This document shows, piece after piece, positions 59,742 to 61,746 of a stretch of DNA of 64,000 nt (position 1 is the stretch's first letter; each line of letters begins with the position of its first letter). The stretch comes from Patescibacteria group bacterium (GTDB lineage Bacteria; Patescibacteriota; JAHJAL01): the NCBI GenBank assembly GCA_049322675.1, contig JBMORM010000014.1, positions 15,896 through 79,895 of the forward strand, written 5' to 3'. Made by a program: the position numbers and the translations under genes. The notes beneath the pieces are model-generated. The model saw only the letters and a program-made list of their open reading frames with translations, did not search any database and was not told where the DNA came from.

Positions 59742-60569
59742 CTACTGCGGCATTACGCCGCTTTTTAAAAATTCAGTATCGAATCCAGCCTGAGAGAGCA
59801 AAAAGTCTTGTCTCTCTTTTTTAGAGCGCATCTTCTGAAGATGTCGCTCCAAAAGTTCTGGATCTGTGGGGAGGATGTACTCACCACCCACACCATCAGG
59901 AACAACAACGGCAAGACAGGGGCCGAACTCTTGGGTCAGACGGGCAAGAGGAATCACTTCCTCAACGCCCTGAATCCTCTTGAACTCTGCTTTCTTAAAA
60001 GTTTCACTTTCTTCAGATGTTAATTTTTTCGCCAGGAAGTCAAAGCCACCGAGAGAAAGAAGAGCCAAGTTATCCCATAAAAGGAAGGTGTTTGCCAAAC
60101 GGCCTTCCTTTATTGATTCTGTCAATTCATTAATTGCCAAGCCTACGGCTTTGGCACCAGAATCGAATTTTTCGATCATCTTTTCTATTATCCCAGGCGT
60201 CATATAGGAGTGGACGTCTGGTGACATGATTAGGCTGTAATCGATTCCATTGCGAAGTTGTTTTGCTACTCCGTAATTTAGAATCCCACAAAATAAGTCA
60301 AAGTTTTTGACTTCTTCTATTTCCACGCATTCAAATTCTGCAAGGGCTTCTTTCATTGCTGGGACCGTTTTTCCGCAGTCGGAATCCTTGAACCTCGGAC
60401 TAGACCAGACTAAAATATCAGTCCTGGAAAAAACTTTTTCGCCGCCTACTTCAACTGCCAGCACCTTCTTAACTGTCTCCTGGACCATCTTTACTCTTTT
60501 TTCCACGTCCTGTTCTTTCGTGGCGTATGTACGGAGAATTACTCCGTATTTTTTGTTTTTACTACACAT
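59742..60569 (-). CDS. protein of an unidentified family, paralog A (275 aa)
   Basis: Shares ILRTxATK..DVxKRV, RxDxLVW...RFxDxDCG, EVKNxDLxCxxLNYGxAKQL, EGRLANTF, GGFD with 60847..61746. Confidence 0.5.
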   Translation of the reverse strand: MCSKNKKYGVILRTYATKEQDVEKRVKMVQETVKKVLAVEVGGEKVFSRTDILVWSSPRFKDSDCGKTVPAMKEALAEFECVEIEEVKNFDLFCGILNYGVAKQLRNGIDYSLIMSPDVHSYMTPGIIEKMIEKFDSGAKAVGLAINELTESIKEGRLANTFLLWDNLALLSLGGFDFLAKKLTSEESETFKKAEFKRIQGVEEVIPLARLTQEFGPCLAVVVPDGVGGEYILPTDPELLERHLQKMRSKKERQDFLLSQAGFDTEFLKSGVMPQ

Positions 60570-60707
60570 TTAAAATTCCCCCTTGTTTTTTGTTACACCC
60601 TTCGGCAGAAAAGATTTACCGAAAGGTATCAAAACATGAAAACACTCTGCGACCACTCCCGCTCATGTTTTCATTTTTAATCTTTATTTTTTTAACGAAC
60701 AAAAAAC

Positions 60708-60771
60708 TCCAGCTTTCAATAAATAACCAATACAAAAACTCGCAATTGATTACTTATCGCTGGAGGTTTTT
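60708..60771 (-). terminator. weak terminator-like hairpin after paralog B
   Basis: CTCCAGC ... GCTGGAG 7-bp stem with a 44-nt loop, T6 on both strands; long loop lowers confidence. Confidence 0.3.
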
Positions 60772-60846
60772 TGACAACAAAATTACTACAAAATACTTTT
60801 GTAATTTCTACTCATTGCCAAAAAACTTCCAGCAAGCAAGTAAAAA

Positions 60847-61746
60847 TTACAACGTACTATCGATTAAACCATTTTTTAACAAAGATGGTTTTTTATTAAC
60901 TGAATCCAACATGGCGGCCTGTCTCTTCAACTTGGTCGCCATCTTGGCAATATGTCGTAAATATAATTTAGAATCGGTTTTAGGATCAGGTATCTGATAT
61001 TTTTTCAACCCTTCTCCTGCCGGACTAACCGAAGCCAGACATTTACCGTATATCTCAACCAACCTTACTAAAGGAATAATTTCTTCCGTCCCGGCCAATT
61101 GGTAAAAAACTTTTCCGTGTTTCTCGTGATGACCTTCCACGTATGCGTGTTGCGGAGATGTATTTTCCTCATTTCCTTTGTTGGGTGGAAGTTTAGCGGC
61201 ATGCAAATCAAAACCGCCGATACTCATCAGTGAGACATTGTGCCAGCAGCAAAAAGTATTGGCCAAACGACCTTCTTGAACAAATGGCGCCAATTCGTCC
61301 ACTTCCACTCCGATCGCTCTGGCTTTATCGTCGATCGCTTGCAATATTCTTTCTATTGTTTCCTGATTGAGATACGACTCCGCCTCCGAAGACATGATAA
61401 ATGAGTAATCGACTCGATCACGCAGTTGTTTGGCGATGCCATAGTTTAACAAAGTGCAATACAGATCACCATTTTTTACTTCGGAAACAAAAACTTTTTT
61501 CTGCTTGTATAAAGCATCTCTTAAGGTTCTAGTCGTCAAACCGCAATCAGCGTCATCAAATCGATCATCGGCCCACACCAAAACATCGATCCTGGAAAAA
61601 AAAGATCGATCACCTTGTTCTAAATTCAATTTTTCGGCTTTCTTTATCGTTTCGATAACCTGCTCAACCCGCTTGATTACATCATCGGGTTTTGTAGCAA
61701 AAGTACGCAGTATCAATCCGAAGCGTTTATTCTGTGCATTTTTCAT
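60847..61746 (-). CDS. protein of an unidentified family, paralog B (299 aa)
   Basis: See paralog A; the two are collinear and clearly homologous across ~230 aa. Confidence 0.5.
   Translation of the reverse strand: MKNAQNKRFGLILRTFATKPDDVIKRVEQVIETIKKAEKLNLEQGDRSFFSRIDVLVWADDRFDDADCGLTTRTLRDALYKQKKVFVSEVKNGDLYCTLLNYGIAKQLRDRVDYSFIMSSEAESYLNQETIERILQAIDDKARAIGVEVDELAPFVQEGRLANTFCCWHNVSLMSIGGFDLHAAKLPPNKGNEENTSPQHAYVEGHHEKHGKVFYQLAGTEEIIPLVRLVEIYGKCLASVSPAGEGLKKYQIPDPKTDSKLYLRHIAKMATKLKRQAAMLDSVNKKPSLLKNGLIDSTL

Follow-up and report, generated by a model that had tools for sequence, protein, structure and literature searches.

A 64,000-nucleotide stretch of DNA from a Patescibacteria group bacterium (assembly GCA_049322675.1, contig JBMORM010000014.1, positions 15,896 to 79,895 of the forward strand; hereafter the window) carries two adjacent, homologous genes, here called pA and pB, next to genes of nucleotide-sugar metabolism. 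The locus raises the question of what these two proteins are and which other parts of it are functional. Our results suggest that pA and pB are long-diverged tandem copies of a soluble GT-A-fold family that is an orphan by sequence and belongs to the Candidate Phyla Radiation (CPR). They are most likely cytoplasmic nucleotide-sugar glycosyltransferases, a reading that leans on structure models and to which we would give an even chance. The most unusual feature of the locus is non-coding RNA, i.e., a hyper-conserved spacer between the two genes and a leader that is associated with the gene family.

The initial annotation of this DNA, made from the sequence alone, had reported two minus-strand genes of 275 and 299 amino acids (aa) at exactly the coordinates given below, homologous over ~230 aa. 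The paralogy is genuine and every shared motif quoted there is present in the BLASTP alignment of pA and pB, although this alignment runs end to end (292 columns, 43% identity, 64% positives, E 1e-82) and the similarity is thus of full length. The pB protein is identical to an NCBI hypothetical protein from a Patescibacteria metagenome-assembled genome. The elements with which this study is mainly concerned are the following.

59742..60569, minus strand: pA, 275 aa, the downstream paralog; open reading frame (ORF), predicted GT-A fold (AlphaFold2 and Foldseek)
60570..60846, minus strand: hyper-conserved structured intergenic spacer of 277 nucleotides (nt), from folding and the comparison of three genomes
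60585..60635, minus strand: pA leader, a diverged instance of the leader motif, assigned by architecture (model R3, 3.7 bits)
60701..60765, minus strand: terminator-like long hairpin CUCCAGC...GCUGGAG (60707-60765) with U6 (60701-60706), downstream of pB, from the three-genome consensus fold
60847..61746, minus strand: pB, 299 aa, the upstream paralog; ORF, predicted to be GT-A-fold, DxD-less and glycosyltransferase-like (AlphaFold2 and Foldseek)
61752..61800, minus strand: pB leader, a diverged instance of the leader motif, assigned by architecture (model R3, 8.6 bits, E 0.3)

Fold, family and conserved residues of pA and pB

At the level of sequence the two proteins indeed belong to no known family, as the initial annotation had stated. 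Neither has a credible match in Pfam, NCBIfam, PHROGs or PADLOC, and 57 aligned family members gave no Pfam match at E<=10, including PF00535. Searches of the PDB with two family profiles returned no glycosyltransferase, the sole similarity being a sub-threshold one to ribosomal protein uS3. When two family profiles were compared by hhalign with an alignment of GT2 transferases from the window and related loci, the probability was 0.2-0.3%, and the sole local alignment, in alpha3-beta4 and within two residues of the topological register, is not evidence of a relationship. The extensions of longer family members (P0165 at 515 aa, P0178, P0061 and P0187; P-numbers denote family members, and L-numbers below the loci that carry family genes) contain no Pfam domain and offer no lead from fusions. 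The uS3 similarity concerns residues ~67-120 of pB (NCBIfam rpsC, E 0.02; PDB uS3 chains, E 0.05-0.1); it weakened to E 0.63 with a broader profile and is probably due to chance.

The fold is recognisable. The AlphaFold2 models are of high quality for both pB (predicted local distance difference test score, pLDDT, 93.8; predicted TM-score, pTM, 0.92) and pA (pLDDT 93.5, pTM 0.91), and Foldseek, run against the PDB as the initial annotation had advised, returned GT-A glycosyltransferases as 47 of the top 50 matches for pB and 46 of 50 for pA, the remainder being nucleotidyltransferases. For both paralogs the matches to GT-A transferases have a probability of 1.00, E-values of 1e-6 to 1e-4 and TM-scores normalised to the query (TMq) of 0.4-0.57 at 8-14% identity; because of these low identities and TM-scores the GT-A assignment of the models is one at the level of the fold only. 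The matches include RmlT, GtrB, PcManGT, K4CP, hyaluronan, chitin and cellulose synthases, GpgS, mannosylglycerate synthase, ppGalNAc-Ts and SpsA, and in the definition of the GT-A core by Taujale et al. (2020; PMC7185993) K4CP (2z86/2z87) serves as the prototype. Both models consist of a single alpha/beta/alpha Rossmann-like domain, as expected for a GT-A core, with GT-A topology in the N-terminal half, and no transmembrane segment occurs in pA or pB. The models thus portray a divergent GT-A-fold family without the status of a fold orphan, the novelty of which is that of a new family or variant. The suggestion of a novel sugar-modifying or transfer enzyme holds in so far as the fold of a nucleotide-sugar transferase fits a transfer activity, but a new kind of enzyme is not indicated.

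Residue conservation was computed over 193 family representatives. The most strongly conserved positions are R14 (98%), D67 (98%), N101 (99%), S119 (98%), G159 (99%), E221 (97%), E222 (97%), K272 (96%) and R275 (98%), and both window copies keep all residues that are conserved at >=95%. A supposed loss of a catalytic aspartate in pA (D60S) was considered and rejected, as D60 occurs in 78% of the family only and pA lacks none of the residues conserved at >=95%. The family has no DxD motif: the strand at 114-118 is followed by S119, a variable residue and a position (121) that is Glu or Asp in just 62% of the members. This does not exclude the family from the GT-A class because GT14 and prokaryotic GT6 transferases have been documented to have lost the DxD motif and to be metal-independent (PMC7185993). 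Glu-222 and Glu-221, directly before helix 223-233, may occupy the position of the xED base, an equivalence that comes from topology only; in GT14 and GT43 a glutamate serves as catalytic base, and the residue at the xED position is usually variable among retaining GT-A families (PMC7185993). By linear order G159 may correspond to the glycine of the G-loop between DxD and xED. H265, present in 64% of the members beside R264 (84%), is a candidate for the C-terminal metal-binding histidine, which has been lost in several true GT-A families (PMC7185993).

The family is small and has a sharp boundary. A word-indexed search yielded 56 homologous clusters, all annotated as "hypothetical," and an exhaustive profile search of 1.84 billion representatives yielded 285 proteins at E<=1e-3; since 258 of these already lie at E<=1e-10, there is no gradual link to any larger family. 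It occurs in 41 species when one genome per species is considered, and nearly all carriers with an informative name are CPR bacteria (Saccharibacteria, Paceibacterota, Moraniibacteriota, Niyogi-, Kerfeld-, Magasanik-, Doudna-, Falkow-, Lloyd-, and Peribacteria), so that the conservation among relatives for which the initial annotation had asked is found across many CPR lineages. At ten loci (L013, L017, L023, L031, L032, L037, L041, L043, L047, and L050) the family is found under labels such as "uncultured Gammaproteobacteria," "Bdellovibrionales" and "Planctomycetia"; several of these records also carry the CPR-type leader described below, and they may represent mis-assigned CPR bins.

Most genomes contain a single family copy and tandem copies are a minority: two copies each occur at L033 and L045, and three in the closest relatives of the window (L009/L012 and L053). 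The tandem duplication is lineage-specific. That of pA and pB is old, with two long branches, because each is 50-54% identical to single-copy genes elsewhere and just 43% to the other. As both retain all invariant residues, a decaying copy does not fit these sequences, which would rather be those of two functional enzymes of diverged specificity or of the partners in a hetero-oligomer. The third tandem member of the relatives (L009 1176-2723; L053 3246-4796) is a protein of 515-516 aa encoded upstream of the pB orthologue. Its family domain spans residues 179-479, and its 178-aa N-terminal extension, 88% identical between both genomes, has no Pfam match; the window contains no counterpart of this gene.

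The spacer and the leader RNA

The 277-nt spacer that separates pB from pA folds strongly on the sense strand, with a minimum free energy of -89.3 kcal/mol against -54.3 +/- 4.5 for shuffled sequences (z -7.9) and -56.1 for the opposite strand. Its identity among three genomes is 94.6%, 92.0%, and 88.0%, whereas in the same genomes the proteins encoded by the flanking genes are 64-85% identical and their third codon positions 46-65%; the spacer is conserved at the level of second codon positions. A spacer that is more conserved than the proteins around it marks functional sequence that annotation pipelines have ignored. Between the window and L009 all eight substitutions in paired columns preserve pairing, and two-sided covariation is absent from the three sequences, which are near-identical. 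An antisense ORF across the spacer (60527-60997) was rejected as a gene, since indels of 1 and 2 nt between the genomes break its frame, and the spacer is therefore considered non-coding. It is likewise no copy of a miniature inverted-repeat transposable element (MITE) or repetitive extragenic palindrome (REP), being unique in the window and the loci, strand-asymmetric and syntenic. It belongs to no Rfam family. A metagenome scan with pA peptides found no further copies, and a DNA scan with 19-mers returned the known contig and chance matches only.

Within the spacer lies the terminator-like hairpin of pB, and the claim that each gene has its own such hairpin is borne out, the one of pA being located at 59663-59692. 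In the single-sequence minimum free energy fold the 5' strand of the spacer hairpin has an alternative pairing with GCUGGAAG further upstream.

A model of the spacer (R1) weakly matched the leader of a distant single-copy family gene (L001), which led to the comparison of all upstream regions. This revealed a leader architecture that is common to many lineages, P1-GAU-P2-YUACCAA-P1', in which an outer helix (P1) is followed by an unpaired GAU, a variable hairpin (P2), an unpaired YUACCAA and the 3' strand of P1 that runs into GGAG; in one subgroup P2 has tandem purine-purine mismatches and an AANNGAA loop. A covariance model was built from six and then sixteen leaders and searched against 556 kb on both strands at E<=5. 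All 21 hits are in sense orientation and immediately precede a gene start, 19 of them before family genes and two before genes of a sister type encoding 288 aa. Over 12 pairs and 20 distinct sequences 91.4% of the cells are paired, compared to 79.8 +/- 1.5 in shuffles (0/500), and there are 33 two-sided changes against 11.5 +/- 2.8 (0/500), with compensatory changes in six of the 12 pairs, in an alignment that was itself fitted to the model. Slid registers reach <=0.174 compared to 0.367 for the leader model. The single-stranded GAU and YUACCAA blocks are conserved across lineages in which the proteins are 40-50% identical, while the helices covary. In 21/21 hits a tetramer resembling the Shine-Dalgarno (SD) sequence begins within the 3' strand of P1, which covers just 1-3 nt of it. 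Rfam 15 gave matches at chance level at the window locus and none at the gathering threshold in the whole window, and nothing at E<=1 at the five loci with the best leader instances.

The leaders in the window are diverged versions of the family leader, recognised by eye from their architecture and not statistically significant on their own. Upstream of pB, P1 is formed by AUCU/GGAU, the 3' strand of which is the SD sequence, followed by AAU, a 10-bp P2 (UCUCUAAAUU/AAUUUGGAGA) and CUACCAA; this P2 is kept in L009 and L053 with a different sequence, including a double change from A-U to G-C. Upstream of pA, P1 is GUUUU/AAAAC, followed by GAU, a P2 of ACCUUUCGG/CCGAAGGGU and GUAACAA, and the SD sequence AAGGGGG lies at 60578-60584. 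The nested helices of the pA leader are also predicted independently by RNAalifold, and model R1 shows the region to be a homologue of the L001 leader.

A gene for a 288-aa protein without Pfam match (L004 9171-10034), homologues of which stand beside family genes in L025, L029, L034, L040, and L050, carries the same leader; a second leader copy (L024) precedes a gene cut by the contig end. The 288-aa protein is collinear with the family profile (P 0.003), with GMDD opposite GVEE, and because of this alignment we regard it, on sequence grounds, as probably a remote sister family. A different arrangement is present at L025, L029, L033, L034, L035, and L040, where, ~50 nt before the family start, TTTTTGTTATACT comes after a GC-rich hairpin and lies just 5-8 nt ahead of the ATG. 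Such an arrangement resembles an extended -10 box, and the mRNAs concerned may be leaderless.

Genomic partners and proposed function

The features that flank the two genes and their leaders are as follows.

58373-59629, plus strand: NAD-dependent sugar epimerase, a short-chain dehydrogenase/reductase (SDR) like UDP-glucuronate 4-epimerase, convergent with pA (Pfam Epimerase, 8.7e-55)
59663-59692, both strands: bidirectional hairpin resembling an intrinsic terminator, located where the pA and epimerase genes converge (11 pairs, of which 7 are G-C; GC-rich, with T-runs on both strands)
61826..61853, minus strand: consensus sigma-70-type promoter TTGACA-16-TATAAT (12/12), upstream of pB, by pattern match only
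61992-62813, plus strand: rmlD
63100-63729, plus strand: rmlC, listed start TTG

Pfam and NCBIfam matches of the flanking genes confirm the reported position between a sugar epimerase and rmlD/rmlC. The significance that had been attached to a rhamnose locus is not supported: the rml genes are incidental neighbours, since the recurrent partners of the family are SDRs of the UDP-glucuronate 4-epimerase type, UDP-glucose dehydrogenase (UGDH) and GT4 transferases, and the conserved link is with the supply of UDP-glucuronic and UDP-galacturonic acid (UDP-GlcA and UDP-GalA). This follows from a census of the two genes on either side of the family gene at 36 analysable loci from the 41-species scan, in which 16 SDR epimerases, 15 GT4 transferases and 7 UGDH were found among 130 near genes, all three being enriched. 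SDRs make up 11 of 67 immediately adjacent genes against 4 of 191 more distant ones (Fisher p 1e-4). Co-directional cassettes recur (GT4>FAM>SDR>GT4>GT4, FAM>SDR>UGDH and UGDH>SDR>FAM, with FAM the family gene), and Bac_transf, Wzy_C and flippase-like genes also occur around the family genes. The adjacent SDRs, including the window epimerase, match best to 6zl6/6zld and MoeE5. 6ZLD and 6ZLL are structures of UDP-GlcA 4-epimerase (PMC11519531) and MoeE5 is a UDP-glucuronate 4-epimerase (PMC12338863). Among solved structures, the window epimerase is closest to 5u4q (1.7e-110) and to the 6zl6/6zld group (4.6e-52). Fifteen of the 36 loci have no sugar gene within two genes, and for this reason the link to UDP-uronic-acid supply is strong, not universal.

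We propose that pA and pB are inverting enzymes in which Glu221/Glu222 would act as the catalytic base and which would operate without a DxD-bound metal, the invariant Arg14, Lys272, and Arg275 stabilising the diphosphate leaving group as in other DxD-less GT-A families. As in GT14 structures, conserved basic residues could take over the stabilisation of the diphosphate. Since UDP-glucuronate 4-epimerase and UGDH are the conserved neighbours, a UDP-uronic acid (UDP-GalA or UDP-GlcA) is the probable donor, and the acceptor would be a growing glycan, the rest of which may be built by the neighbouring GT4 transferases. The two copies may differ in their donors or acceptors, or work together in a hetero-oligomer. 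In the window the consensus promoter would drive pB, and the spacer hairpin may modulate read-through from pB into pA. Folding of the leader, the P1 3' strand of which overlaps the SD sequence, would gate ribosome access and thereby translation, and a ligand or protein that sits on the conserved internal loop may stabilise this fold.

Other functions have to be weighed against a uronosyltransferase. It is unlikely that the proteins are nucleotidyltransferases or other enzymes that form or modify nucleotide sugars (IspD/KdsB/GlmU type) and would make or edit the activated sugar. Such enzymes are among the structural matches (6oew at rank 22 and GlmU at rank 49 for pB; IspD 1vpa at rank 16 and GMPPA/B at rank 31 for pA), the invariant R14 in or just after beta1 is loosely like a phosphate-binding arginine, and the genes sit among those of nucleotide-sugar biosynthesis. 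However, they account for only 3-4 of the 50 top matches and cover mainly the N-terminal half; beta1 has the consensus G-L-I-L-R-x-[FY]-A and is followed by no glycine-rich GxGxR / PAR-GSK phosphate-binding loop like that of IspD, KdsB/NeuA and GlmU/RmlA, neither Pfam nor NCBIfam shows a match, hidden Markov models for NTP_transferase, IspD and CTP_transf included, and the family has a C-terminal subdomain in which a helix starts with an acidic pair, as is typical of GT-A transferases. UGDH and UDP-glucuronate epimerase moreover use sugars that are already activated, which a consumer fits better. It is still less probable that pA and pB are retaining enzymes that glycosylate a small phosphorylated metabolite to a compatible solute or primer, as do GpgS (GT81) and mannosylglycerate synthase (GT78). 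GpgS is the most balanced full-length match for pB (4y7f, TMq 0.48; normalised to the target, TMt 0.51) and mannosylglycerate synthase is found at ranks 6, 12, and 14 for pA; the proteins are of similar size and soluble, their invariant C-terminal Lys/Arg could bind a phosphorylated acceptor, and some loci lack nearby glycan genes. GT81 and GT78 nevertheless need the DxD-bound metal that is missing here, the acidic residues at the xED position are conserved in 97% of the members where retaining families usually vary (PMC7185993), and cassettes with several GT4, Bac_transf, Wzy_C and flippase-like genes speak for the assembly of a polymer. We would rate equally low the possibility that one or both proteins are non-catalytic and either serve a glycan-assembly complex as scaffold or regulatory subunit or bind their own leader RNA as autoregulators. 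The missing DxD, the existence of pseudo-glycosyltransferase partners such as in the CHSY3-CHPF heterodimer among the structural matches, the recurrence of tandem paralogs in four lineages, a family-specific leader with a conserved internal loop, which demands a specific ligand or protein, and the recurring weak, sub-threshold similarity to uS3 (E 0.02-0.1) would all agree with it. Yet both copies retain the residues conserved at >=95%, including the acidic pair and the basic residues, which suggests an active site, most genomes have a single copy that can hence be no mere partner subunit, and the uS3 similarity fades as described above.

For the RNA elements the main alternative, doubtful but to be taken seriously, is that their conservation reflects a constitutive element for mRNA stability or processing together with a conserved context of translation initiation, and not a switch operated by a ligand or protein. 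A switch as proposed names no ligand or binding partner, the leader is small (12 modelled pairs) and its P1 reaches no further into the SD sequence than the first 1-3 nt, a subset of the family genes instead has a hairpin and then TGTTATACT directly before the ATG, and the spacer is without two-sided covariation. On the other hand, conserved GAU and YUACCAA blocks between covarying helices are the usual sign of a specific binding site, the same leader precedes two gene families that are at most very remotely related, and the spacer is conserved like second codon positions. The most far-reaching version of our proposal is a new riboswitch or autoregulatory RNA class that senses a nucleotide sugar, for example UDP-GalA or UDP-GlcA, or is bound by the GT-A-like protein itself. 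It would control a new family, at the level of CAZy, of DxD-less, metal-independent uronosyltransferases and their remote sister family, which would make a surface glycan found in CPR bacteria only, with the spacer in the window lineage as a terminator/antiterminator layer that sets the pB:pA ratio. As a whole this seems rather unlikely to us.

Several further observations concern the surroundings. The window epimerase has a C-terminal extension of ~100 aa (residues ~320-418; 59329-59629) that received no family assignment and is absent from solved epimerases, the matches of which stop near residue 316; the syntenic epimerase of L053 (420 aa, 62% identity, alignment to residue 411) has the same extension. 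Beyond the epimerase lie a 23S_rRNA_IVP four-helix-bundle gene (57803-58174) and a 304-aa ORF (56806-57720, minus strand) without Pfam or NCBIfam match, which is syntenic and 67% identical in L053 and has a 29%-identical homologue ~3 kb from the family gene in L032. Some 20 kb away are two canonical GT2 glycosyltransferases and a polyprenyl synthetase (38076-38831, plus; 41710-42651, plus; and 38835-39842, minus strand). The alignment of the 313-aa GT2 includes C-terminal hydrophobic segments, and this protein presumably resembles polyprenyl-phosphate glycosyltransferases such as GtrB. The heptamer ATTTCCA/ATTTTCA, with 33 matches where 0.45 would be expected, forms inverted arrays that make up an interspersed palindromic repeat. 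Copies of this repeat lie at 2435-2557, 23833-23862, 31359-31524, 32151-32205, 33600-33688, 34100-34197, 49813-49849, and 62814-63114. Two long copies share GGGACCGAACTGCTGCTGGCAAT (31404-31426 on the plus and 63113-63135 on the minus strand), and strong folding of either strand (z -8.7 and -10.5) gives these long copies the look of MITE or REP elements. One copy lies between rmlD and rmlC, and the listed TTG start of rmlC (63100) reads through it. The actual start of rmlC is probably Met29 (~63184), since its matches to Pfam and NCBIfam set in only at residue 30-33; the gap between rmlD and rmlC would then measure ~370 nt.

Comparison with known systems

The closest known counterparts of pA and pB are GT2-type GT-A enzymes (K4CP 2z86/2z87, RmlT of L. 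monocytogenes 8bz5, GtrB, PcManGT 6yv7 and SpsA), which have the same alpha/beta/alpha fold (Foldseek probability 1.00), the same order of elements (beta1-alpha-beta2-alpha-beta3-alpha-beta4, acceptor subdomain, acidic pair at a helix start, strand) and a similar setting in glycan loci. The pA/pB family differs from them in having no detectable sequence relationship (no match to PF00535; hhalign 0.2-0.3%), an invariant serine and a variable residue in place of DxD, Glu-Glu in place of the Asp-containing xED, no transmembrane or interface helices and an invariant set of its own (R14, D67, N101, K272, and R275). With the DxD-less GT-A families, i.e., GT14 (such as C2GnT and XylT) and prokaryotic GT6, it shares the loss of DxD, and with GT14 possibly a glutamate base (PMC7185993), but none of these is among the top structural matches or has a sequence match to pA/pB; they are eukaryotic (Golgi) or Bacteroides enzymes, and the metal independence of pA/pB is a prediction. 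GpgS (GT81) and mannosylglycerate synthase (GT78) are of similar size (~280-380 aa), soluble and have the best length-balanced TM-scores, although their activity depends on a DxD-bound divalent metal and their substrates are small phosphorylated acids, whereas the neighbourhood of the pA/pB family gives no hints of compatible solutes.

CPR bacteria (Patescibacteria) are episymbionts whose cell-surface chemistry, which is almost unknown, probably mediates attachment to the host. If activity were to be shown, pA and pB would represent a new glycosyltransferase family and a further independent case of a DxD-less GT-A enzyme. The proteins alone are moderately interesting; the leader and the spacer add to this, being specific and statistically supported outside the window, and the leader is a candidate new regulatory RNA in a phylum from which few family-specific cis-regulatory RNAs are known. 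It differs from known SD-sequestering leaders, such as translational riboswitches and leaders of the ribosomal-protein type, in that it matches no Rfam 15 family, has so far been found only in CPR genomes and has a regulatory role that is predicted. Like them, however, it is a short 5' element with covarying helices, conserved unpaired loop nucleotides, an outer helix that takes in part of the SD sequence and a tight tie to one set of genes.

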